A stretch of DNA of 64,000 nt from Flavobacteriaceae bacterium UBA3478 (GCA_002381155.1 DFQX01000087.1:1435-65434), one strand, 5' to 3'. Counted from the stretch's first letter, positions 3,194 to 14,452 are shown. Numbers and translations are program-made. The notes: generated from the sequence alone by a model not told the origin.

Positions 3194-4213
3194 ATGATTA
3201 GAAATTTAAAAGCCATAATTCTATTGTTATTCGCAGGGCTGTCTTTTGGTTCTTGCTCGCTCATTGGAGATCAATCAAATATAGTCGGGGTAAAAGATCA
3301 TCTGCTCACCATTAACGATAGACCCTTCTTTATAAAGGGTATATGCTATCACCCTGTTGAGAAGGGTCATACGATGAGAAGTTTTGGGCAAATCGAAAAA
3401 GATCTGAAACTAATCAAAGCAGCAGGAGTGAATACCCTAAGAGTTTATGAACCCATAGCGTCAAGAGAAATACTCGATCAAATCTACGATGCAGGGCTAC
3501 GGTTGATCATTAGTTTCGGGTTTAACCAAGGAGGCGTTTATGACCTACAATCTGAGACCTATCTCGATTATGTAGAGATGTTTAAATCTCACCCAGCAAT
3601 TCTTCTATGGGAACTTGGAAACGAATACAACTATCACCCTGAGTGGTTCGGGGGATCGGTAGATTATTGGTATACGGTTCTCAACGAATCTGCTGCCGCC
3701 ATCAAACAAATAGACACCAAACATCCTGTAGCTACAGCGCACGGAGAAGTTCCGAGTGAAGACCTCATTCAACGATTAGATCAAATTGATCTGTGGGGCT
3801 TCAATGTCTACCGATGGGATCAACCTGGTACTGCGCTTGAAGAATTTTCTAAAGTCAGTTCTAAGCCGGTTTATTTCTCAGAGCTTGGTGCCGATAGCTA
3901 CATGACCATAGAAAATGAAGGCTACGCTTTAGGTTATAATGAGACCGCACAAGCAGACGCTACTCAAACGATTTTAGATCAAGTATTGACACCAAACACA
4001 AAGGCGACAGGCGCGATCGTATTTTCATTTACCGACGGATGGTGGAAGGCAGGTTCTCCTGAAACCCAAGATGTGGGCGGATGGACTCCAGGAAGTAGTG
4101 GAGTCCCTTACGATGCTACTGCAAATGAAGAGTATTGGGGAATCGTTACTTTAGACCGAGAGCAAAAAGAAGCTTATGAGGTCGTTAAAAAGGCCTTTAA
4201 GTCTTTCAGATAG
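3194..4213 (+). CDS. Clan GH-A TIM-barrel glycoside hydrolase/transglycosylase, lipoprotein (motif order resembles GH72; GH5-like not excluded)
   Basis: Lipobox SFGSC. Ordered motifs: RPFFIKGICYHP, AGVNTLRVY, WELGNEYNY, IDLWGFNVYRW, VYFSELGADS. Confidence 0.6.
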   Translation: MIRNLKAIILLLFAGLSFGSCSLIGDQSNIVGVKDHLLTINDRPFFIKGICYHPVEKGHTMRSFGQIEKDLKLIKAAGVNTLRVYEPIASREILDQIYDAGLRLIISFGFNQGGVYDLQSETYLDYVEMFKSHPAILLWELGNEYNYHPEWFGGSVDYWYTVLNESAAAIKQIDTKHPVATAHGEVPSEDLIQRLDQIDLWGFNVYRWDQPGTALEEFSKVSSKPVYFSELGADSYMTIENEGYALGYNETAQADATQTILDQVLTPNTKATGAIVFSFTDGWWKAGSPETQDVGGWTPGSSGVPYDATANEEYWGIVTLDREQKEAYEVVKKAFKSFR

Positions 4214-6547: not shown

Positions 6548-8032
6548 TTAACTGAACGCGTCACGATTAGGTAAGGTGTGCTTACTCAGCACCCGTTTAG
6601 CATCAGAAACAACTGCAATTTCTTTTTGAAGACGGTAAAGCTTTTCACTGGCTTCTTTTCTCGCCTGATCTAAATCTACGATAGGGTTTGGATAATCGAT
6701 CCCCTTTCTGAAGTCGTAAAAGATCTCATCCATCGGAGTAAGCGCTGCAGGATTATGAACGAAAGCTTGAGGCAAGTTAGCTAGTTCAGGGACCCACTTT
6801 AAAATGAAAACTGCATCTGGATCGTGCTTCACACTATTCGATAATGGGCTATAAATTCTAATCTGGTTAATCCCTGTTTCGCCTGCTTGCATTTGTAGTT
6901 GCGGATAATGAATTCCAGGTTCAAAATCTAAAAACTGTCGCGCCAAATGTGGACTAATCACTTGCCAAGGTAGCCAAAGATGGTGAGTAGCAAAAGAAAC
7001 TAGAAGTGCACGCATTCTAAAATTAAGATATCCTGTTGCGTTGAGGCATCGCATCGCCGCATCTACAAGTGGCACCCCGGTTAACCCTTTTTCCCAAGCT
7101 TCTAAAAAAATGGTGTTTACTGGCTTGTTCAAGGTGAGATATCCTCGGTTTACCGGCTCGAACTCTATGCGATCTTCCATCTCAAATTTTTGAATAAAAT
7201 GAGCCTGCCAGCGGAGCCTTGATCGAAATGACGATAACGATCTTTTCGGCTTGGCATCCCCATACACCCTTCCCGTAGCTTTAAACACCTCTTTAACAGA
7301 TAAACATCCAAAGGCGATATATGGAGATAGTCTACTGCAGCTAATTCGAGAATCTAACGGCTTAGAAATATGTTTATTATAATTTTTGTAGCGCTCGTTT
7401 AAAAAGCTGTTTAAATAGCGCAACCCCATATTTCTTCCGCCCTTTTGGCGATCGATAGACCGGTCTTCAGGCAGTGTTAATAGGTTCATTTCATTCTCTA
7501 CTTGAGAAAGCATCGTGCTGCTAACGACAGATTTTTTTGACCATAATGGATGTGATATCGAAGATTCCATGAAAGCCTCCCACCGATCTCTCCAACCCAA
7601 TCGATGTTTGAGACCACGCTCTACCCCATTCGTGTTGAACTCTAGCCATGGGATATTTTCTTGTGCTAGTATCCTGGAGAACCTTTTGTCTCGATCGAAA
7701 GTGATTTTTAAACCCGTTTCTCGATAACTATAAACACTAGTTATTTCAAAGGTTTCGCTGAGCCGAATGAAGTTATCTGAAACTGAGCCATACATCTGTA
7801 ACACACGAGCATCCACCGATTGTAAAAAACCATCAAAGTCTTTCAAACTCTCAGAAATGAAGTGCCAGTGTCTTGCGCTATAGTGTTTATCACTGAGCAA
7901 TATCGGTTCGAAATTATACCAAAAAATTACAGGATAGCCCGAATCAATAGCCGCTGAAATCGGCTCGTGATCTTCCCAACGCAAATCACGTTTTAACCAA
8001 ACTAAAGCAACCTTTGGTCTGTTCTTTCTCAT
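6548..8032 (-). CDS. Cryptochrome/photolyase family protein (FAD-binding)
   Basis: N-terminal VWLKRDLRWEDHEPI (photolyase alpha/beta domain). C-terminal TGVPLVDAAMRCLNATGYLNFRMR (FAD-binding-7 signature). Confidence 0.8.
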   Translation of the reverse strand: MRKNRPKVALVWLKRDLRWEDHEPISAAIDSGYPVIFWYNFEPILLSDKHYSARHWHFISESLKDFDGFLQSVDARVLQMYGSVSDNFIRLSETFEITSVYSYRETGLKITFDRDKRFSRILAQENIPWLEFNTNGVERGLKHRLGWRDRWEAFMESSISHPLWSKKSVVSSTMLSQVENEMNLLTLPEDRSIDRQKGGRNMGLRYLNSFLNERYKNYNKHISKPLDSRISCSRLSPYIAFGCLSVKEVFKATGRVYGDAKPKRSLSSFRSRLRWQAHFIQKFEMEDRIEFEPVNRGYLTLNKPVNTIFLEAWEKGLTGVPLVDAAMRCLNATGYLNFRMRALLVSFATHHLWLPWQVISPHLARQFLDFEPGIHYPQLQMQAGETGINQIRIYSPLSNSVKHDPDAVFILKWVPELANLPQAFVHNPAALTPMDEIFYDFRKGIDYPNPIVDLDQARKEASEKLYRLQKEIAVVSDAKRVLSKHTLPNRDAFS

Positions 8033-8049: not shown

Positions 8050-8065
8050 TGTAACATAGGTTACT
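8050..8065. promoter_or_regulatory. Candidate Crp/Fnr-type operator TGTAACATAGGTTACT, upstream of the regulator-sulP operon
   Basis: A 16-bp near-palindrome lying 21 nt upstream of a TACCTTTG -7 box. It is one of four related sites in the cluster. Confidence 0.55.
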
Positions 8066-8086
8066 AATAAGGATGTTCGCTAATGC

Positions 8087-8094
8087 TACCTTTG
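8087..8094 (+). promoter_or_regulatory. Bacteroidota -7 promoter box TACCTTTG (regulator-sulP)
   Basis: Matches TAnnTTTG. A second match, TATTTTTG, lies at 8115-8122. Confidence 0.45.
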
Positions 8095-8147
8095 AACCAC
8101 TTTTGATTTTAACCTATTTTTGAAAGAACACCTATTCAATAGATAAC

Positions 8148-8780
8148 ATGCTTACCGATCTTCAATCTGTTTATGGATCACTTCTTGAAGCCTCTCTACT
8201 TCAAGAGATCAACCAAGTGGGCACCTACAGACAAATACAGGCAGGAACCGAGATCATCAGACCGGGAGAGTATATTAAAAGTATTCCCCTTTTAATCTCA
8301 GGAGCCATTAAAGTAATTCGTGAGTATGACGACGGAGAAGAACTTCTTCTTTACTATGTCGAAGAAGGAAATACTTGTTCCATGTCTATGGCCTGCTGCA
8401 CCGAACAAAAAAGAAGTACCATTAAAGCGATGGCTGAAGTTGACACTCTTTTAATCGTGATTCCTAATCAAAAATTAGAGGAGTGGATAGGTAGATATCC
8501 GAGATGGAGAAGTTTCATCTTTGCGAGTTATCAAAATCGCCTCGAAGAGATGCTATCTAGTCTTGAGAAAGTAGCGTTTGAACGATTAGATGAGAGACTT
8601 ATTGAGTACCTTAAAGAAAAAGGGAGAATCAATGGTGAAAACAGTATTCACCAAACTCATAAAGAAATCGCAGATGAGCTTCATAGTTCTCGAGTGGTAA
8701 TCTCGAGGTTACTTAAAAAATTAGAGAACCTTGGTCATATAAAGCTGCATAGAAACCATATTGAACTTCTTGATCTTTAA
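8148..8780 (+). CDS. Crp/Fnr family transcriptional regulator
   Basis: 210 aa with a beta-roll effector domain followed by a C-terminal HTH (THKEIADELHSSRVVISRLLKKLENLG). It heads the sulfide oxidation cluster. Confidence 0.8.
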   Translation: MLTDLQSVYGSLLEASLLQEINQVGTYRQIQAGTEIIRPGEYIKSIPLLISGAIKVIREYDDGEELLLYYVEEGNTCSMSMACCTEQKRSTIKAMAEVDTLLIVIPNQKLEEWIGRYPRWRSFIFASYQNRLEEMLSSLEKVAFERLDERLIEYLKEKGRINGENSIHQTHKEIADELHSSRVVISRLLKKLENLGHIKLHRNHIELLDL

Positions 8781-8783
8781 GTA

Positions 8784-10517
8784 ATGAAATCTTTCCTTCA
8801 GTTTATTCCAATCCTTCAATGGTTGCCTAATTATAAAAAAGCACATCTTTCAGGTGATCTATCGGCAGGATTAACTGTGGGAATTATGCTTATTCCGCAA
8901 GGAATGGCTTACGCCATGCTCGCCGGTCTACCTCCGGTTTTTGGTTTATATGCCTCTTTGATTCCACAAGTAATCTATGCACTCCTAGGAACTTCTAGAC
9001 AGCTTAGCGTAGCTCCTGTGGCAATGGATTCACTACTAGTAGCAGCGGGCTTAGGAGCGCTTTCACTTAGTGGAATTGAAGAATACACTTCAATGGCTAT
9101 TTTTCTTGCCCTTTTCATGGGAAGTATTCAGTTCTTGCTAGGTATCGTAAAGATGGGATTTTTGGTGAATTTCTTATCAAAACCTGTTATTAGTGGGTTT
9201 ACCTCTGCAGCTGCCTTAATCATCGGGCTTAGCCAATTAAAGCATTTACTAGGAGCGCCTATAGAAAACAGTAATCAAATTCATATTCTATTAGGGAACA
9301 CCGTTGAAGTACTCGATCAGATCAATATCTATGCTATCGTCCTGGGCGTTGCGGCTATTCTAATTATTAAAGCAATCAAGAGATGGGCTCCTAAGATTCC
9401 AGCAGCTTTAGTAGTAACTATCCTTGGAATTGTGATCACCTATGCTTTCAACCTCAGCGAATATGGACTTAATATCGTTAAGGTGGTTCCTTCAGGTCTA
9501 CCAAAGGTTGGGCTGCCAGAATTATCTTTGGATCGCTTAAACGATCTAACTCCTATAGCAGTTACTCTAGCACTTATCGCATTTATGGAGGCCATTTCAG
9601 TAGCAAAGGCAATAGAAGAACGTAAGGGACTTCAAGAGGTGAGGCCGAATCAAGAACTTATCGCGATCGGTATGGCCAATATAGTAGGGTCTATTTTTCA
9701 ATCGTACCCTGTCACTGGAGGATTCTCGAGAACCGCAGTAAACGACCAAGCTGGTGCATCTACACCGCTTTCCTCGATTATTAGTGCGATAATTGTTGGG
9801 CTAACGCTACTATTCTTAACTCCACTTTTTTATCATCTACCCAAAACGGTACTTGCCGCCATTATCATGGTAGCTGTTTTCGGGCTGATTGATTTTGCCT
9901 ACCCTGTTCGACTCCTTAGAAAAAGAAAGGACGAATTTGCTATACTCGTAATTACTTTTCTGACTACGCTAACTATTGGTATTACTGAAGGTATCATCCT
10001 AGGGGTATTAATCTCACTAGGCTTAATGATTTATAGAACATCACAACCTCACTATGCAATTCTAGGAAGGATAAAGGACTCTACCCATTATCGAAATGTG
10101 AAACGATTTGACAAAGAGGTTAGCATCGACCCAGAAGTGCTTTTCTTTCGATTCGATGGCCAATTATATTTCGGAAATAAGGATTATTTCAAAACTGAGC
10201 TTACTCAGGCAGTGGAGTCACATGGCAGCGAATTAAAAGGAATTGTTTTATCGGTAGAGGCGATTAATTATATCGACTCCACTGCTGCTCACATGTTAAG
10301 ACAACTTTTCAGCCAGTTCGAAGAAAGAGGAATTAAGGTTACCATATCAGGACCTATCGGGCCGATTAGAGACATTCTAAAAAGAAGTGAAATCGTTGAT
10401 CTAATAGGAAAGCAGTCCTTCTTTGATAATGCACACGACGCCTTTTTATTTATTAAAGGAGATGAGAATAAAATCGATGAGTATTCTAGAAGAATAGCCT
10501 TAGAATCAAAAGAATAG
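8784..10517 (+). CDS. SulP family inorganic anion transporter with C-terminal STAS domain
   Basis: N-terminal LSGDLSAGLTVGIMLIPQGMAYAMLAGLPP is the SulP signature. A C-terminal STAS-like domain is present (FRFDGQLYFGN...INYIDSTAAHML). Confidence 0.9.
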   Translation: MKSFLQFIPILQWLPNYKKAHLSGDLSAGLTVGIMLIPQGMAYAMLAGLPPVFGLYASLIPQVIYALLGTSRQLSVAPVAMDSLLVAAGLGALSLSGIEEYTSMAIFLALFMGSIQFLLGIVKMGFLVNFLSKPVISGFTSAAALIIGLSQLKHLLGAPIENSNQIHILLGNTVEVLDQINIYAIVLGVAAILIIKAIKRWAPKIPAALVVTILGIVITYAFNLSEYGLNIVKVVPSGLPKVGLPELSLDRLNDLTPIAVTLALIAFMEAISVAKAIEERKGLQEVRPNQELIAIGMANIVGSIFQSYPVTGGFSRTAVNDQAGASTPLSSIISAIIVGLTLLFLTPLFYHLPKTVLAAIIMVAVFGLIDFAYPVRLLRKRKDEFAILVITFLTTLTIGITEGIILGVLISLGLMIYRTSQPHYAILGRIKDSTHYRNVKRFDKEVSIDPEVLFFRFDGQLYFGNKDYFKTELTQAVESHGSELKGIVLSVEAINYIDSTAAHMLRQLFSQFEERGIKVTISGPIGPIRDILKRSEIVDLIGKQSFFDNAHDAFLFIKGDENKIDEYSRRIALESKE

Positions 10518-10522
10518 ACTTT

Positions 10523-10538
10523 TGTAACTTAGGTAACT
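10523..10538. promoter_or_regulatory. Candidate Crp/Fnr-type operator TGTAACTTAGGTAACT, upstream of the PDO-rhodanese gene
   Basis: Same motif, 21 nt upstream of the TAACTTTG -7 box. Confidence 0.5.
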
Positions 10539-10559
10539 CTGCATTAAAAATACTGCTGT

Positions 10560-10567
10560 TAACTTTG
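10560..10567 (+). promoter_or_regulatory. -7 box TAACTTTG (PDO-rhodanese)
   Basis: Matches TAnnTTTG, 21 nt before the ATG at 10589. Confidence 0.45.
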
Positions 10568-10588
10568 ACCTACTTAAAAGTACGCGAC

Positions 10589-12007
10589 ATGAAAATAGAA
10601 CAAATTTATACCGGATGTTTAGCTCAAGGAGCTTACTACATTGAAAGCCAGGGAGAGGTAGCTATTATCGATCCTTTAAGAGAAGTGAAACCTTATCTAG
10701 AAAAGGCTAAAGAGGCTAATGCTAAAATTAAGTACATTTTTGAAACTCACTTTCACGCAGACTTCGTGAGTGGACACTTAAGTTTAGCCAAAGAATCAGG
10801 TGCGCCAATTATTTATGGACCGAATGCCAACCCTAGTTTTGATGCCATTATCGCTAAAGATGGTCAAGAATTCAAGTTAGGAGAAGTTACCATCGTCGTG
10901 CTTCACACACCGGGTCACACCATGGAGTCTACTACCTATTTACTGAGAGATGCTAACGGTAAAGATCATGCTATTTTTAGTGGAGATACATTATTCTTAG
11001 GAGATGTTGGACGCCCTGACTTAGCTCAAAAAGCAGCTGATATGACGCAAGAACAATTAGCTGAGACACTTTTTGATAGCTTGAGAACTAAGATCATGCC
11101 TCTTTCAGATGAAATCACTGTTTATCCTGGTCATGGAGCTGGCTCAGCTTGTGGTAAGAACATGATGAAAGAGACCGTTGACACCTTGGGGAATCAGAAA
11201 AAAATGAATTATGCACTTCGTGTAGATATGACTAAGGCAGAGTTTGTAAAAGAAGTTACCGACGGTCTAATGCCTCCACCTCAATACTTCCCATTAAATG
11301 TGAAGATGAATAAGGAAGGATACGATCACTTCGACGAAGTCTTAGAAAGAGGTTCGACTCCTTTAAGCCCCGAGGCTTTTGAGGATGTTGCTAATCAAAC
11401 TGGCGCATTGGTTATAGATGTTCGTCATCAAGATGATTTCGTAAAAGGACACATCCCACGCTCTATTTTCATCGGTTTAGACGGTAGTTTTGCCCCATGG
11501 GTAGGAGCCCTAATTGCTGATGTCGAGCAACCCTTATTACTGGTTACTCCAGAGGGGCGCGAAGAAGAGACTATTACTCGTTTAGCACGTGTAGGTTTCG
11601 ATAATACTCTAGGGTACCTAGAAGGAAGTTTCAAGTCTTGGAAAAATGCAGGTAGAGAATTCGACACCATTGATACCATTTCTGCTGAGGACTTAAAGTC
11701 AAAACTAACATCTAACGACACTGAAGTTTTCGATGTTCGTAAGGATACAGAGTTCTATGCACACCGTATACCTAATGCCAAGAATACCCCACTAGATTAC
11801 CTCAACGACCACTTGGGTGAATTTCCTGAAAACAAGTCGTTCTTCATCCACTGTGCTGGAGGATACCGTTCGGTAATTGCAGGATCGATTCTAAAGAGCA
11901 GAGGGATCCATAACTTCGTTGATATTACCGGTGGATTTAAAGCAATAGAAGCAGCTGAAATAAAGTTGACAGACTATGTGTGTCCGTCAACGATGCCTTC
12001 GAAATAA
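10589..12007 (+). CDS. Persulfide dioxygenase (MBL fold) fused to two rhodanese domains
   Basis: MBL motif THFHADF plus HTPGHT. The C-terminal rhodanese active-site loop is HCAGGYRS. The middle rhodanese-like domain lacks the Cys. The ATG at 10589 is preferred over the TTG at 10565. Confidence 0.8.
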   Translation: MKIEQIYTGCLAQGAYYIESQGEVAIIDPLREVKPYLEKAKEANAKIKYIFETHFHADFVSGHLSLAKESGAPIIYGPNANPSFDAIIAKDGQEFKLGEVTIVVLHTPGHTMESTTYLLRDANGKDHAIFSGDTLFLGDVGRPDLAQKAADMTQEQLAETLFDSLRTKIMPLSDEITVYPGHGAGSACGKNMMKETVDTLGNQKKMNYALRVDMTKAEFVKEVTDGLMPPPQYFPLNVKMNKEGYDHFDEVLERGSTPLSPEAFEDVANQTGALVIDVRHQDDFVKGHIPRSIFIGLDGSFAPWVGALIADVEQPLLLVTPEGREEETITRLARVGFDNTLGYLEGSFKSWKNAGREFDTIDTISAEDLKSKLTSNDTEVFDVRKDTEFYAHRIPNAKNTPLDYLNDHLGEFPENKSFFIHCAGGYRSVIAGSILKSRGIHNFVDITGGFKAIEAAEIKLTDYVCPSTMPSK

Positions 12008-12030
12008 ACCTAATAATTTCAAGTTTACTG

Positions 12031-12061
12031 CCCTGTGTAACTTTGGTTGCACAGGGTTTTT
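12031..12061 (+). terminator. Intrinsic terminator after the PDO-rhodanese gene
   Basis: Stem CCCTGTG (12031-12037) pairs with CACAGGG (12050-12056), followed by TTTTT. Confidence 0.6.
12036..12051. promoter_or_regulatory. Candidate Crp/Fnr-type operator TGTAACTTTGGTTGCA, upstream of sqr (embedded in the terminator hairpin)
   Basis: Same motif, 21 nt upstream of a TAGCTTTT -7-like box. Confidence 0.4.
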
Positions 12062-12072
12062 CATTTTATCAC

Positions 12073-12080
12073 TAGCTTTT
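12073..12080 (+). promoter_or_regulatory. -7-like box TAGCTTTT (sqr), imperfect
   Basis: 7 of 8 informative positions match TAnnTTTG. Confidence 0.3.
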
Positions 12081-12109
12081 ATCTCAACTTTAACTAAACG
12101 ATAAACACT

Positions 12110-13393
12110 ATGTCAACTTCTTATCAAGTTCTAATTATTGGGGGAGGTACTGCTGGTATCATGGCAGCATCTCGTTTACAGAAATTAGATTCATCACTCT
12201 CAATCGCCATCATTGAGCCTGCCGACACTCACTATTACCAACCCGCGTGGACTTTAGTTGGTGCTGGAGCTTTTGATTATAAAAAAACTGCTAAACCTAT
12301 GGCAGAGGTAATACCAAAAGGCATTTCGTGGGTGAAAGACTTTGCGGTTTCATTCGATCCTGATAACAACGCTGTGAGAACGAAAGAAAGTGGTGACATC
12401 TCCTATGACTACTTAATTGTAGCTCCAGGGCTTGTTATGGAACCTAGTATGATTAAAGGCTTACCTGAAGCTCTTGATAAAGGGGTTGTTTGCAGTAACT
12501 ACACCGATCCAGAGCACACCTGGAAATTGTTACAAAACTTCAAGGGAGGTAATGCGATTTTTACTCAGCCAGCGACACCCATCAAATGTGGTGGTGCTCC
12601 ACAGAAAATTGCTTATCTGGCAGCAGATTATTTGAAAAAGCAAGGACTATCTAAGAAATCTAATGTCATGTTTGCTACCCCGGGTACCGTAATTTTTGGT
12701 GTACCGGTAATCAGAGAAACTTTAATGAAGGTCATTGGCAAATACAATATTAAGTTTCATCCGTACAATACGCCCGTAGAAATCGATTCAAAGAAAAAAA
12801 TCGCTTATTTCCTTGATAAGACTCCAGAAGATCACGCTTGTTTTGTTCAAAAAGAAGGAAGCTCCTTCGGTACAGATAATGTGTTCGGCGCAACAAAAAC
12901 TGAAGATGGTAGAATTGCGGTACCATTCGACTTTCTCCATATTGCTCCACCTCAAGCAGCACCAAAATTTATTAGAGAGTCGGCCCTATCCAATGATGGG
13001 GGCTGGTTGAGCGTTGATAAGCACACCCTACAGCACACCAAGTATGCTAACGTATTTGGATTAGGTGATGTAGCCGGGTTACCGACGGCAAAAACAGGAG
13101 CTGCAATTCGCAAGCAAGTTCCTGTAGTATTAGACAACATCTTACGTTTAATCAAATCAAATACTATCGGTTCTAAATCTTATAATGGCTACTCATCTTG
13201 TCCGTTGGTTACAGGGTACGGTAAGATGGTACTTGCAGAATTTGATTACGACAACAACTTTACTCCAGATCCAAAACTCAAACAAATGCTTGTATTCGAT
13301 TCTTCGAAAGAACATTGGAGATTATGGATGTTGAAAAAGTTCGGACTTCCCTATCTATATTGGAATAAAATGCTAAAAGGAGAAGACGTATAA
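12110..13393 (+). CDS. sqr: Sulfide:quinone oxidoreductase, type II (SQRDL-like)
   Basis: FAD motif IIGGGTAG. HYYQPAWTLVGAG, KCGGAPQK and YSSCPLVTGYGKMVLAEFDY match the redox-Cys regions of type II/mitochondrial-type SQR as I recall them. Confidence 0.85.
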   Translation: MSTSYQVLIIGGGTAGIMAASRLQKLDSSLSIAIIEPADTHYYQPAWTLVGAGAFDYKKTAKPMAEVIPKGISWVKDFAVSFDPDNNAVRTKESGDISYDYLIVAPGLVMEPSMIKGLPEALDKGVVCSNYTDPEHTWKLLQNFKGGNAIFTQPATPIKCGGAPQKIAYLAADYLKKQGLSKKSNVMFATPGTVIFGVPVIRETLMKVIGKYNIKFHPYNTPVEIDSKKKIAYFLDKTPEDHACFVQKEGSSFGTDNVFGATKTEDGRIAVPFDFLHIAPPQAAPKFIRESALSNDGGWLSVDKHTLQHTKYANVFGLGDVAGLPTAKTGAAIRKQVPVVLDNILRLIKSNTIGSKSYNGYSSCPLVTGYGKMVLAEFDYDNNFTPDPKLKQMLVFDSSKEHWRLWMLKKFGLPYLYWNKMLKGEDV

Positions 13394-13403
13394 TTTTTAA
13401 ATA

Positions 13404-13419
13404 TGTAACCTAGATTACA
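13404..13419. promoter_or_regulatory. Candidate Crp/Fnr-type operator TGTAACCTAGATTACA, upstream of yeeE/yedE
   Basis: Same motif, 20 nt upstream of the TATTTTTG -7 box. Confidence 0.55.
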
Positions 13420-13439
13420 CCCACTTACACAGTGTGTTT

Positions 13440-13447
13440 TATTTTTG
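13440..13447 (+). promoter_or_regulatory. -7 box TATTTTTG (yeeE/yedE pair)
   Basis: Matches TAnnTTTG, 20 nt before the ATG at 13468. Confidence 0.45.
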
Positions 13448-13467
13448 AAATGTGAAAAAATGATCCT

Positions 13468-14025
13468 ATGGAATTTATAATGCAACCCTGGGCATGGTAT
13501 GTTTCTGGCCCACTCATCGCTCTCGTAATGTTTTTCCTAATCTTCTCAGGAAGAAACTTCGGTATGTCTGGTAATTTGCGCATCATGTGCGCCGCTCTAA
13601 GTGGAGACAAAGCTTGTGACTTCTTTCGCTTTGATTGGAAAGCTCAGCGTTGGAATTTAGTTTTTGCACTTGGAGCAATTTTAGGGGGCTTCGTGGCCGC
13701 TGAATTTCTAAGCACCGACACATCAGTAGCAATTACAGAGGGTACGATCGAAAAACTAGCCCAGTATGGTTTTACAGACGGTGGCGCCGCCTATCTCCCA
13801 GAACAACTATTCAGTATAGATTCTCTTAGCAACCCCTATACATTACTGTTGCTAGCCATCGGAGGGTTTCTTGTTGGATTTGGTTCTAGATATGCAGGAG
13901 GATGTACTTCTGGCCACGCGATCTCTGGATTAAGCGACCTTCAACTTCCTTCACTCATTGCGGTGATCGGTTTCTTCATTGGAGGTCTCTTTATGGTTCA
14001 TTTCCTATTTCCAATTTTATTCTAA
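13468..14025 (+). CDS. YeeE/YedE family sulfur-compound transport protein
   Basis: Multi-pass membrane protein with the GGCTSGHAISG motif typical of YeeE/YedE. Confidence 0.8.
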   Translation: MEFIMQPWAWYVSGPLIALVMFFLIFSGRNFGMSGNLRIMCAALSGDKACDFFRFDWKAQRWNLVFALGAILGGFVAAEFLSTDTSVAITEGTIEKLAQYGFTDGGAAYLPEQLFSIDSLSNPYTLLLLAIGGFLVGFGSRYAGGCTSGHAISGLSDLQLPSLIAVIGFFIGGLFMVHFLFPILF

Positions 14026-14038
14026 AAACGCTTTATCT

Positions 14039-14452
14039 ATGAAAACACTTAAATATTTAATTACAGGTATCGCATTTGGAGTTATTATGTTCAAATCAGA
14101 AGCGGCTTCTTGGTTTAGAATTTTTGAAATGTTCCAATTTAATTCGTTCCACATGTACGGAATTATTGGTTCAGCTCTTGCTACCGGAGTCATAGGGATT
14201 CAACTTATTAAACGTCTAAAACTTAAATCCTTTTCTGGAGAAGAAATTATTATACCACCGAAGGCAAAAGGATGGAAAAACTATTTGTTTGGAGGTATTT
14301 TATTTGGTTTAGGATGGGGGCTTGCCGGAGCATGTCCTGGTCCAATTTTTACGTTAATTGGAGCAGGTTTCCTTCCACTTATTTTAGTCCTGGCATTTGC
14401 AGTACTCGGCACCTTCGTTTACGGAATTCTTAGACCAAAACTACCTCACTAA
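14039..14452 (+). CDS. YeeE/YedE family protein (second half-size subunit)
   Basis: Membrane protein with GLAGACPGP. It is paired with the preceding gene. The ATG at 14039 (MKTLKYL) is preferred over the overlapping upstream start. Confidence 0.75.
   Translation: MKTLKYLITGIAFGVIMFKSEAASWFRIFEMFQFNSFHMYGIIGSALATGVIGIQLIKRLKLKSFSGEEIIIPPKAKGWKNYLFGGILFGLGWGLAGACPGPIFTLIGAGFLPLILVLAFAVLGTFVYGILRPKLPH

Follow-up and report, generated by a model that had tools for sequence, protein, structure and literature searches.

A conserved palindromic operator and a cysteine-bearing Crp/Fnr-family protein point to a putative sulfide-oxidation regulon in Flavobacteriaceae

Described regulators related to the locus

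The known RSS sensors, including CstR, SqrR/BigR/YgaV and FisR, control sqr, pdo, rhodanese, TauE and YeeE/YedE genes, the same kind of genes as those gathered in the cluster considered here, and rely on conserved cysteines, typically a cysteine pair (PMC13467558). Their folds are CsoR-like, ArsR and sigma-54 enhancer-binding, respectively, and a review of August 2026 limits its list of RSS sensors to the CsoR, ArsR and Fis superfamilies (PMC13467558), in line with the initial annotation of the locus, which assigned the characterized sensors it named to other families. Repression is the mode of action of CstR and the ArsR types, and FisR depends on sigma-54, whereas in the present locus, located in a 64-kb window (the whole stretch of DNA analyzed), a Crp/Fnr fold would occupy a class II site at a sigma-A promoter.

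Among Crp/Fnr proteins, NtcA resembles the regulator of this locus in its helix (R-V-x-x-x-R), in its autoregulation, inferred for the present regulator, and in its core site GTA-N8-TAC, which is contained in the operator of the cluster, TGTAAC-N4-GTTAC(A/T). Class II NtcA sites are centered at -41.5 (PMC3898017). In NtcA promoters, some 22 nt separate the site from the TA of the box that follows (GTA-N8-TAC-N22-TA). However, NtcA is cyanobacterial, shares only ~22% identity with the regulator, responds to 2-oxoglutarate, governs nitrogen assimilation and lacks the Cys triad.

HcpR2-type regulators of Bacteroidota and Clostridia, such as P. gingivalis HcpR, also belong to the Crp/Fnr family; GTAAC-N4-GTTAC was predicted for this other branch without E181 (Rodionov 2005), and binding of NO to the HcpR heme leads to hcp transcription (PMC12750200). 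In a metagenome scan, the same palindrome, with 21 nt to TAnnTTTG, was also detected 5' of hcp, Fer4 and cupin genes with HcpR2-like neighbors. The motif class and its spacing are thus common to HcpR2-type hcp regulators, and the motif alone fails to identify a sulfur regulon; as a correction, the motif class is no longer to be regarded as unique. HcpR2 proteins differ from the present regulator in their R-P-S-L-A-R helix, their heme-based NO sensing, their nitrosative-stress regulon and their sites (TGTAACA-N2-TGTTACA), and the relationship is very distant, at about 25 bits against the subfamily profile; the hcp-linked regulators in L082, L087, L142, L152, L184 and L188 score only 21-28 bits.

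The best match in both sequence and fold is E. rectale protein 3DV8, which has cysteines aligned to C77 and C83 of the regulator. PgRsp of P. gingivalis is probably the nearest characterized relative, although its membership of the subfamily is only presumed; it has been connected with oxidative stress, heme and virulence genes rather than with sulfide oxidation, and binds heme in vitro. FLP (Lactobacillus casei) and CprK are precedents for cysteine redox control of Crp/Fnr proteins, but their cysteines are located at the N-terminus and in the C-terminal domain, they employ disulfide rather than persulfide sensing, and they serve other regulons.

Gene cluster, operators and regulator protein

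Domain and homology searches confirmed every gene call of the initial annotation (Crp/Fnr regulator, SulP-STAS, PDO-rhodanese, type II SQR and two YeeE/YedE proteins), and the window cluster is organized as four transcription units, namely regulator-sulP, pdo-rhodanese, sqr and yeeE-yedE (Table 1). The best solved relatives of the pdo product are the MBL-rhodanese fusions 3tp9 (4e-70) and 3r2u (9e-55); we take 3r2u to be S. aureus CstB and the pdo product to have the CstB architecture. The upstream pdo start, TTG 10565, was rejected in favor of ATG 10589 because it lies inside the -7 box. Assignment of the SQR to type II is supported by its closeness to the human mitochondrial enzyme. In relatives, a TauE/SafE gene takes the place of sulP after the regulator, and none of 29 second-half yeeE/yedE orthologues has a site upstream.

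Table 1. Coordinates of genes, operators, -7 boxes and a hairpin in the 64-kb window
Feature	Position	Strand	Details
Crp/Fnr-family regulator, 210 aa	8148-8780	+	Pfam cNMP_binding and HTH_Crp_2; C77, C83, C84; helix HSSRVVISRLLKKLE
SulP-STAS anion transporter	8784-10517	+	domain matches; 3 nt 3' of regulator, same transcript
Persulfide dioxygenase with two rhodanese domains (pdo)	10589-12007	+	MBL and two rhodanese domains
Sulfide:quinone oxidoreductase (SQR), type II-like	12110-13393	+	human mitochondrial SQOR is nearest, E 1e-102
YeeE/YedE-type sulfur transporter, first half	13468-14025	+	Sulf_transp domain
YeeE/YedE-type sulfur transporter, second half	14039-14452	+	Sulf_transp; without own operator, same transcript
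Operator 1	8050-8065	no strand	TGTAACATAGGTTACT; 1 mismatch to TGTAAC-N4-GTTACA; 5' of regulator-sulP operon (putative autoregulation)
Operator 2	10523-10538	no strand	TGTAACTTAGGTAACT; 2 mismatches to TGTAAC-N4-GTTACA; 5' of pdo
Operator 3	12036-12051	no strand	TGTAACTTTGGTTGCA; 1 mismatch to TGTAAC-N4-GTTACA; 5' of sqr
Operator 4	13404-13419	no strand	TGTAACCTAGATTACA; 1 mismatch to TGTAAC-N4-GTTACA; 5' of yeeE/yedE
-7 box TAccTTTG	8087-8094	+	21 nt past end of operator 1, equal to the family-wide 21 nt
-7 box TAacTTTG	10560-10567	+	21 nt past end of operator 2
-7 box TAgcTTTT, imperfect	12073-12080	+	21 nt past end of operator 3
-7 box TAttTTTG	13440-13447	+	20 nt past end of operator 4
Terminator-like hairpin and T-run after pdo	12030-12068	+	12-bp stem, 4-nt loop, built round operator 3

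The four palindromes first reported in the cluster gaps are present in the window sequence at exactly the positions proposed, and the claim that each ends 20 or 21 nt before a -7 box of the Bacteroidetes type (TAnnTTTG) also held (21, 21, 21 and 20 nt), with the third box imperfect; the yeeE box of relatives is TTnnTTTG at 21 nt, compared with the window's TAttTTTG at 20 nt. The initial annotation had not noticed the motif in other intergenic regions, and this too held, as the only additional match with at most 2 mismatches in the 64 kb (11245-11260) falls within the pdo coding sequence. The whole-window count alone is not significant (5 observed vs 2.09 expected, with at least 5 in 8/100 shuffles). 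It is the placement that is significant: each cluster gap holds one site, the gaps (115, 71, 102 and 74 nt) make up 0.57% of the window, and the per-gap expectations multiply to ~7e-11 by our own arithmetic from the window scan figures. The hairpin built round operator 3 (dG -20.5 kcal/mol, z -4.5) is retained in L001-L004 with compensatory flank changes.

The regulator contains only cNMP_binding (PF00027, 1.5e-10) and a Crp-type HTH (PF13545, HTH_Crp_2, 2.5e-9, with a weak Crp match). It matches 46 PDB Crp/Fnr chains and all of its top Foldseek matches are Crp/Fnr proteins, so that it shows the layout expected of the Crp/Fnr superfamily, an N-terminal beta-roll of the cNMP-binding type followed by a C-terminal winged HTH. 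C77, C83 and C84 are its sole cysteines and, together with the recognition helix HSSRVVISRLLKKLE, are invariant in 21 orthologues. The helix aligns to R180/E181/R185 of CRP as R-V...R, the NtcA pattern, while the cysteines align to the CRP segment around residues 70-77, in the effector pocket, and an invariant serine followed by a mostly basic residue at position 89-90 lies near the phosphate-binding R82/S83 of CRP. The wider family, taken at E below 1e-30, resolves into 204 clusters at 50% identity; C77 occurs in 148/150 of its best representatives, roughly 110 of these 148 having a second Cys at 83 and/or 84 by our own tally of patterns. C77-only regulators adjoin sulP-pdo-yeeE in L144 and L181, and a C77-C83/84 bridge is therefore not obligatory. 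The AF2 model is weak in the Cys loop (pLDDT below 50, residues 73-88), so no cysteine geometry can be drawn from it.

Several established identities were considered and rejected. CRP proper, the cAMP receptor, is excluded by the NF008732 score (49.8 bits vs a cut-off of 266), by Val in place of E181 and by the pocket segment TCSMSMACC; FNR by NF008365 (27.3 bits vs 228), by the absence of an N-terminal Cys cluster and by a motif differing from TTGAT-N4-ATCAA; and NtcA by TIGR03697 (41.7 bits vs 244.95). HcpR2 is ruled out by an R-V rather than R-P helix and the absence of hcp from the cluster, and CstR (CsoR-like), SqrR/BigR (ArsR) and FisR (sigma-54 EBP) by the Pfam composition given above.

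Conservation of the site and its target genes in relatives

The comparative set consisted of 80 genomes of Flavobacteriaceae and related MAGs with an orthologous regulator. A co-oriented sulfur-oxidation gene adjoins the regulator in 76/80 loci, with pdo following in 71/80. Allowing at most one mismatch, TGTAAC-N4-GTTAC(A/T) occurs at 278 sites, compared with 2-5 expected, nearly all of them in the cluster. An outcome that would have told against the original proposal, a motif frequent without any tie to sulfur genes, was not observed in the regions compared: loci with full flanks contain a single site in the upstream flank (0-9 kb, 504 kb in total) against 211 on the cluster side. Counted with at most 2 mismatches within 200 nt upstream (limits stated for pdo), sites lie 5' of 81/93 pdo, 20/21 sqr, 20/29 yeeE and 11/27 sulP orthologues. 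An equivalent of operator 1 is kept in L001-L003, and in many relatives a site precedes the regulator gene or a DUF983-regulator operon; across the 80 genomes, conservation of the palindrome extends to the upstream regions of orthologous pdo, sqr, yeeE, sulP and regulator genes. Sites also precede genes for TauE, rhodanese, 1-Cys peroxiredoxin, a sulfite-oxidase-like Mo enzyme, DsrE, a YgaP-like protein and CydA (cytochrome bd); HemN and cytochrome bd are occasional targets, and some clusters include a second Crp/Fnr paralogue.

The spacing is as well conserved as the site, with a -7-type box beginning exactly 21 nt past it in 194/275 sites across at least seven gene families. No conserved -33 element was found between site and -7 box in the family-wide alignment of sites, while a T and a G just 3' of the site are conserved (66% and 64%). 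It is the letters of the motif, not pairing alone, that are conserved across genera. In a metagenome composite-promoter scan blind to the regulator, sulfur-regulon genes lay downstream of 59/117 promoters. The criterion of a two-fold symmetric 14-16 bp site (5-6 bp half-sites, N4-N6 spacer) is met by the conserved motif, without binding data, and the reconstructed regulon meets the RSS-sensor criterion, namely control of sqr, pdo, sulfurtransferase and transporter genes, by association only.

Proposed mechanism, alternatives and significance

On comparative genomic evidence, and without binding data, the 8148-8780 protein very probably represents an undescribed Crp/Fnr subfamily whose dimer binds TGTAAC-N4-GTTAC(A/T). 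As the site ends 21 nt before the -7 box, its center would fall near -40.5 to -41.5, in place of the usual -33 element. From there the regulator is likely to activate transcription by touching RNA polymerase directly, in the manner of NtcA and FNR at class II promoters; the fixed spacing and the lack of a conserved -33 element agree with the class II geometry first suggested, which, with the transcription start sites unmapped, is inferred, as is activation itself. Regulator-sulP is among the four operator-driven units, and positive autoregulation would thus follow from the activator reading; the initial claim of autoregulation is supported to the extent that a site lies 5' of the regulator or its operon. 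The signal would most likely be sulfane sulfur, that is, persulfide or polysulfide made from H2S by SQR. The sensor would be the invariant C77 and C83/C84, which take the place of the segment of the effector pocket that contacts the cyclic nucleotide. Their persulfidation, or a polysulfide bridge between them, may then play the role of cAMP in CRP or 2-oxoglutarate in NtcA, shifting the dimer to its DNA-binding form, and the output would be conversion of sulfide to sulfite or thiosulfate with transport of the products. Gene content and the conserved cysteines are the grounds for inferring a response to sulfide or persulfide, which has not been shown, and we give this cysteine switch slightly less than even odds. 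Experimental data are lacking for binding, for induction and for the chemistry of the cysteines. Because the -7 boxes depart little from consensus, the promoters might need no activator; the T-G after the site could also be a residual -33 element open to occlusion by a repressor. Taken as a whole (binding, activation, cysteine-based sensing and output), the scheme is nevertheless the explanation that we favor by a modest margin. Every computationally testable part of the original interpretation held.

Palindromes without any protein partner, serving merely as terminators or intergenic repeats, are all but excluded: site 3 does lie at the tip of a strong hairpin with a T-run behind it, but no co-oriented gene precedes site 1, extended stems and T-runs are missing from the other sites, and neither the fixed spacing to the -7 box nor sequence conservation beyond pairing fits this view. 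It is also very unlikely that another factor, HcpR-type or a different Crp/Fnr paralogue, binds the palindromes and leaves the adjacent regulator a bystander. HcpR2-like proteins do share this motif class and spacing, and the second paralogue of some clusters could be invoked; however, the regulator gene has a site of its own or belongs to an operon with one, gene and motif occur together in 76/80 loci with helix and motif both invariant, these loci showed no hcpR-like gene, and hcp-type sites differ (TGTAACA-N2-TGTTACA, last position A in 24/24). An unlikely variant retains regulator and sites but makes the protein a repressor, whose reduced form would cover the -33 region and be released on cysteine persulfidation, as for CstR, SqrR and BigR. 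Known RSS sensors are mostly de-repressed repressors (PMC13467558), and both the near-consensus boxes and the T-G at the -33 position are compatible with it; yet an exact 21-nt spacing over many unrelated promoters and genera fits stereospecific RNA polymerase contact and exceeds what occlusion would need, and the architecture is that of NtcA class II promoters and is common to hcp promoters served by the activator HcpR. Most Crp/Fnr proteins activate from -41.5, which also speaks against repression.

A further, less favored possibility accepts regulator, sites and activation but not cysteine persulfidation as the route of the signal, proposing instead either a cofactor bound by the cysteines, be it a CooA-like heme thiolate, an Fe-S cluster or a metal, and responsive to H2S, O2 or redox state, or a pocket that binds a small sulfur anion, for instance sulfite or thiosulfate. 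In its favor, PgRsp has Cys76 and Met78, was modeled on 3DV8 (the top PDB match in the present analysis too), takes up heme in vitro and influences the redox stress response; C77 lies near what we take to be the position of CooA Cys75, and the three cysteines with conserved methionines (TCSMxMxCC) resemble a metal site. The serine and mostly basic residue at 89-90, the C77-only variants that still adjoin sulfur genes, and the occasional presence of HemN and cytochrome bd among targets also count in its favor. Against these readings, single C76A, M78A or H85A substitutions left the heme spectra of PgRsp unchanged, the wider family, by our tally, generally has a cysteine pair, no further cofactor-ligand motif was identified, and an O2-labile sensor would be ill-suited to an O2-dependent PDO.

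No earlier description of a Crp/Fnr sulfide regulon was found in the literature searched. A bolder reading of the sulfane-sulfur model holds that this Cys-bearing Crp/Fnr subfamily constitutes a fourth structural class of dedicated sulfane-sulfur sensors, and the first to act as a sigma-A class II activator, its cyclic-nucleotide pocket having been converted into a cysteine-based persulfide/polysulfide switch; we regard this as tentative, with the balance tilted slightly against it. The wider family probably includes E. rectale 3DV8 and P. gingivalis PgRsp and, if the reading is true, would represent a large set of thiol-based redox or RSS sensors within Crp/Fnr that has escaped recognition. 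In that case, the sulfide sensors known from bacteria would gain a new protein class, represented in a marine flavobacterium by a regulator that binds the same palindrome at a constant spacing from each of four promoters of sulfide-detoxifying genes.

Association of the regulator and its palindrome with sulfur genes

The Crp/Fnr-family regulator, the palindrome TGTAAC-N4-GTTACA and a set of sulfur genes very likely belong together as regulator, operator and regulon. Related genomes were scanned with one genome per species; at least 531 species possess a relative, and the comparison retained 80 loci. Those that carry a name all come from Flavobacteriaceae genera (Maribacter, Kordia, Aquimarina, Tamlana, Robiginitalea, Cellulophaga and others), and some MAGs are labelled just Bacteroidota or Bacteroidia. 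In one of the closest relatives (locus L001) the regulator is 100% identical to that of the window. A same-strand sulfur gene follows the regulator in 76 of the 80 loci (pdo, encoding persulfide dioxygenase-rhodanese, in 71). Sites with at most one mismatch number 278 in 1.445 Mb, compared with 2-5 in Markov simulations, and the 56 loci with full flanks hold a single site in the 0-9 kb upstream flank versus 211 from 9 kb on. In the 200 nt upstream, 81/93 pdo, 20/21 sqr (sulfide:quinone oxidoreductase), 20/29 yeeE, 11/27 sulP and 0/29 yedE genes have a site.

When every site having a -7 box (the Bacteroidetes TAnnTTTG element) and a downstream ORF is considered, the targets comprise pdo-rhodanese (88 sites), a DUF983-like membrane protein preceding the regulator (30), TauE/SafE (29), sqr (22), the regulator itself (20), an FA_hydroxylase membrane protein (16), sulP (11), 1-Cys peroxiredoxin (8), a sulfite-oxidase-like molybdoenzyme (7), a YgaP-like protein (6), DsrE (4) and cytochrome bd subunit I (3). 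The same gene set, including the switch to a sulfide-resistant cytochrome bd, is controlled by the sensors of reactive sulfur species (RSS) known so far (PMC13467558).

The DUF983-like membrane protein is small, has two CxxC pairs and bears only borderline resemblance to DUF983. It opens the regulator operon in many genera (~30 loci), has an operator upstream and is missing from the window's clade; a role as an accessory component of the sensing system is conceivable. The FA_hydroxylase-family membrane protein, a histidine-box enzyme, is a recurrent motif target that frequently lies on the opposite strand (15 loci and 4 metagenome loci), and its link to sulfide stress is unexplained. Small HMA-domain proteins (~87-92 aa, CGGC/CMGC motif) are located 3' of the composite promoter in L060 and in metagenome loci L110, L111 and L127, as are five thioredoxin-like proteins of the metagenome set.

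Metagenome contigs were scanned independently of the regulator for the composite TGTAAC-N4-GTTACW-N21-TAnnTTTG, yielding 131 sites, 117 of them with a downstream ORF. Sulfur-regulon members follow 59/117. Of the remainder, 24 are followed by hcp (8), a 4Fe-4S protein of ~300 aa (12) or a small cupin (4), 8 by thioredoxin-like or HMA proteins and 26 by other ORFs. The initial annotation would have been refuted by a motif frequent without association to sulfur genes; this is not the case, and the palindrome is strongly tied to such genes. In six motif-positive metagenome loci there are Crp/Fnr genes of only very distant relationship, scoring 21-28 bits against the subfamily profile versus ~380 for orthologues; their R-P-S-L-A-R helix is that of HcpR2 as defined by Rodionov 2005. 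In four of the six (L082, L087, L152 and L188) an hcp or 4Fe-4S gene stands behind the composite promoter; hcp/4Fe-4S/cupin-type sites also occur in L090, L096, L097, L105 and others. The motif class and the 21-nt spacing are thus not unique to the sulfur regulon and are common to HcpR2-linked hcp promoters. The hcp-type sites differ in reading TGTAACA-N2-TGTTACA, the final base being A in 24/24, whereas in sulfur-type sites TGTAAC is preferentially followed by C or A and the final base is preferentially T.

Operators, transcription units and promoter geometry

Inspection of the sequence alone had suggested a sulfide detoxification cluster with a 16-mer ahead of the regulator, pdo, sqr and yeeE, each 20 or 21 nt from a -7 box in class II CRP/FNR geometry. 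All four 16-mers are present exactly as written, and the distance held at 4/4 sites, the box of operator 3 being imperfect; the spacing fits a class II geometry, and activation itself is a likely inference. The gene list was upheld by Pfam, NCBIfam and PDB comparisons.

Coordinates of features in the window and in related loci
Feature	Locus	Position	Details
Photolyase/cryptochrome-family gene	window	6548-8032 (-)	divergent from regulator
Operator 1 (regulator-sulP)	window	8050 (start)	1 mismatch; TAccTTTG after 21 nt
Regulator	window	8148-8780 (+)	210 aa; cNMP_binding and HTH_Crp_2 domains
Operator 2 (pdo)	window	10523 (start)	2 mismatches; TAacTTTG after 21 nt
pdo start	window	10589	ATG
Match within pdo	window	11245-11260	2 mismatches
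Match within pdo	L001, L002	13099	
Operator 3 (sqr)	window	12036 (start)	1 mismatch; TAgcTTTT after 21 nt
Operator 3 hairpin	window	12030-12057	T-run next (to 12068)
Operator 3 hairpin	L001, L002	around 13885-13915	flanks ccctg/caggg
Operator 3 hairpin	L003	around 13890-13935	flanks ccctttgctt/aaggcaaaggg
Operator 3 hairpin	L004	around 3823-3865	flanks ccctttgctt/aaggcaaaggg
Operator 4 (yeeE)	window	13404 (start)	1 mismatch; TAttTTTG after 20 nt
yeeE spacer hairpin	window	13420-13447	partly degenerate
yeeE spacer hairpin	L001	15274-15300	cccact...agtggg and T-run
yeeE spacer hairpin	L002	15275-15301	cccact...agtggg and T-run
DUF983-like protein	L007	9551-9994	
DUF983-like protein	L079	8462-8851	
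FA_hydroxylase protein	L007	16011-16886 (-)	
Small HMA protein	L060	13041	
Second Crp/Fnr paralogue	L016	6028-6606	
Second Crp/Fnr paralogue	L021	14088-14684	
Second Crp/Fnr paralogue	L045	17034-17615	
Second Crp/Fnr paralogue	L098	4363-4953	
Second Crp/Fnr paralogue	L172	101-691	
Variant regulator	L144	10962-11489	W-E replaces C83-C84
Variant regulator	L181	1264-1791	W-E replaces C83-C84

The SulP-STAS transporter gene begins 3 nt past the regulator stop codon, and two YeeE/YedE halves, sulfur transporter components, lie downstream of sqr. The pdo product joins a dioxygenase of metallo-beta-lactamase fold to two rhodanese domains, and the solved structures that match it best are the MBL-rhodanese fusions 3tp9 and 3r2u. 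The latter is S. aureus CstB, and the pdo product has the CstB architecture. SQR most resembles the human mitochondrial enzyme SQOR (E 1e-102), in support of its assignment to type II. TTG 10565 was ruled out as the pdo start since it falls within the -7 box. The cluster probably comprises four transcription units with an operator and promoter apiece: regulator-sulP, pdo, sqr and yeeE-yedE. More distant relatives have a separate site for sulP or tauE immediately 3' of the regulator gene.

Counted over the whole window, the motif is not significantly enriched by itself (5 observed versus 2.09 expected; at least 5 in 8/100 shuffles). The four cluster gaps total 362 nt with one site in each, and the product of the per-gap expectations is ~7e-11 by our own arithmetic. 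The significance of the sites rests on placement and conservation, not on the window count. The fifth match with at most two mismatches in the 64 kb, with no others, lies within the pdo coding sequence and lacks a suitably spaced -7 box. It is found again in L001 and L002, the closest relatives; coding conservation is the simplest explanation of this recurrence. The start codon of the photolyase/cryptochrome-family gene is 18 nt from operator 1, and no clear -7 box for this gene was seen in the shared 115-nt gap.

Operator 3 forms the apex of a 12-bp hairpin (dG -20.5 kcal/mol, z -4.5). The hairpin flanks are retained in L001 and L002 and replaced by longer complementary ones in L003 and L004. 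Since the flanks vary between clades yet stay complementary, the pdo terminator appears to be built around the sqr operator and kept by compensatory change. A single DNA segment would therefore serve as RNA terminator and protein-binding site, an inference from sequence without binding data. In L001 and L002, the stretch from the yeeE operator to the -7 box contains a short hairpin that resembles the sqr terminator set inside the next promoter's spacer, which is 20 nt in the window versus about 21-22 in these relatives. A reading of the palindromes as terminators or repeats only was rejected on the fixed spacing and conservation data.

Across 275 sites, a strict TAnnTTTG starts exactly 21 nt after the site in 118 and a relaxed TAnnTWT in 194, with no enrichment of the box at any other distance; yeeE promoters of relatives carry TTnnTTTG at the 21-nt place. 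The consensus is t.TGTAACcaatGTTACtg-N20-TAntTTTG, without conservation in between, or GTA-N8-TAC-N22-TA when written from the core. Canonical NtcA-activated promoters contain GTA-N8-TAC centred near -41.5 (PMC3898017), and the NtcA site usually lies 22 nt from the -10 box. The Bacteroidetes promoter consensus differs from that of sigma-70; if the T of TAnnTTTG is at -11 or -12, the site centre falls at -40.5 or -41.5. The spacing is precise to one base in many genera and at least seven gene families that are unrelated, and this favours activation because stereospecific contact with RNA polymerase demands such precision. Further support comes from the HcpR2-linked hcp promoters, which have the same architecture, since HcpR, upon NO binding to its heme, drives hcp transcription (PMC12750200). 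The regulator thus likely activates from a class II position, as inferred from spacing and by analogy with NtcA and HcpR.

DNA recognition and proposed sensing by the regulator

The regulator scores far under the curated cut-offs for CRP, NtcA and FNR and is therefore placed outside all named subfamilies; among solved structures, the uncharacterised 3DV8 of E. rectale is closest to it, and NtcA comes next. The recognition helix HSSRVVISRLLKKLE does not vary among 21 orthologues (57-88% identity), and neither do C77, C83 and C84 in the motif T-C-S-M-x-M-x-C-C. R182/V183/R187 align with R180/E181/R185 of E. coli CRP. The R-V-x-x-x-R pattern is that of NtcA, whose GTA-N8-TAC core is contained in TGTAAC-N4-GTTACA, and for another Crp/Fnr branch without E181 the motif predicted by Rodionov et al. 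2005 is GTAAC-N4-GTTAC; a Crp/Fnr protein of this helix type therefore fits the palindrome.

Some sulfur clusters contain a second Crp/Fnr paralogue, ~38-40% identical, with a sole C77-equivalent Cys and an R-E-V-I-S-R helix. Hybrid sites such as TGTAACATATGTCACA immediately follow it in L021 and L045, and in L098 a hybrid site and a TGTGAC/GTCACA site lie ~1.4 kb downstream. Covariation of helix (R-V versus R-E) with half-site (TGTAAC versus TGTGAC) would rest on only five loci with the R-E paralogue, and G/C-variant half-sites are also present at loci having the R-V protein alone. The variant regulators retain the recognition helix; that of L144 adjoins sulP-pdo-yeeE-yedE with one operator, and L181 is too short to show neighbours.

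Known RSS sensors typically use a cysteine pair forming a di- or polysulfide bridge (PMC13467558). The regulator cysteines align around CRP residues 70-77, beside phosphate-binding R82/S83. A search of 1.84 billion cluster representatives returned 204 clusters with E <1e-30; in the best 150, C77 is present in 148, all three cysteines in 54 and, by our own tally, a second Cys at 83 and/or 84 in roughly 110, with R-V helices in about 45 and R-E in about 95. The wider family being Cys-bearing with both helix types, the sulfur regulator represents one branch of a large Cys-bearing Crp/Fnr family. It is postulated that sulfane sulfur made by SQR would switch the regulator dimer on by modifying C77 and C83/C84 within the former nucleotide pocket. 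Such cysteine-based persulfide/sulfane-sulfur sensing is the simplest model, for which belief and doubt are nearly balanced. The AlphaFold2 model (21-sequence alignment; mean pLDDT 68.7) confirms the Crp/Fnr fold in a fold search and nothing more (TM 0.35-0.42), and cysteine geometry is not derivable from it, the Cys loop having pLDDT <50.

A cofactor-based or anion-binding sensor, instead of cysteine persulfide sensing, is possible and a serious rival. Regulators with C77 alone (L144, beside sulP-pdo-yeeE, and L181) weaken the cysteine model, the unreliability of AlphaFold2 in the Cys loop is a further weakness, and PgRsp of P. gingivalis binds heme in vitro. PgRsp has been described as a novel family with Cys76 and Met78, modelled on 3DV8; it is likely related to the regulator family, although this is inferred only from published residue numbers and the 3DV8 template, without sequence comparison. 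As to the direction of control, a repressor reading, in which the regulator occludes the promoter, is possible and not excluded: the -7 boxes deviate little from consensus, and the conserved T-G directly behind the site may be a residual -33 element. Occlusion, however, needs less than the one-base precision observed.

Relation to known systems and significance

Activation from the class II position resembles the mechanism of NtcA, FNR and HcpR, while in function the regulon resembles those of CstR, SqrR/BigR and FisR; by sequence the regulator belongs to none of these. Dedicated bacterial RSS sensors are assigned to the CsoR, ArsR and Fis superfamilies (PMC13467558, a review dated August 2026), in agreement with the initial annotation, which had placed known sulfide/persulfide sensors in other families. 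No prior description of a Crp/Fnr regulator of sqr/pdo, or of the motif, was found in the literature searched, subscription journals and regulon databases being outside its scope. The protein is thus likely a class II regulator of the Crp/Fnr type whose regulon is new, and its sensing chemistry is probably new.

CsoR, ArsR and Fis sensors leave the control of sulfide oxidation in Bacteroidota unexplained. Among marine heterotrophs the Flavobacteriaceae are a major group, and sqr/pdo oxidation by heterotrophs is regarded as a relevant sulfide sink. The regulon reconstruction suggests new sulfide-stress genes, namely those for the DUF983-like and FA_hydroxylase membrane proteins and the small HMA proteins. 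If true, the proposal would provide a new protein scaffold and a new logic for RSS sensing (activation from -41.5, not de-repression), show a nucleotide pocket rebuilt for cysteine chemistry, and define an operator-promoter module that could serve Bacteroidota as a switch responding to sulfide. It would also give a testable function to a large uncharacterised Crp/Fnr family, probably including the virulence-linked PgRsp.
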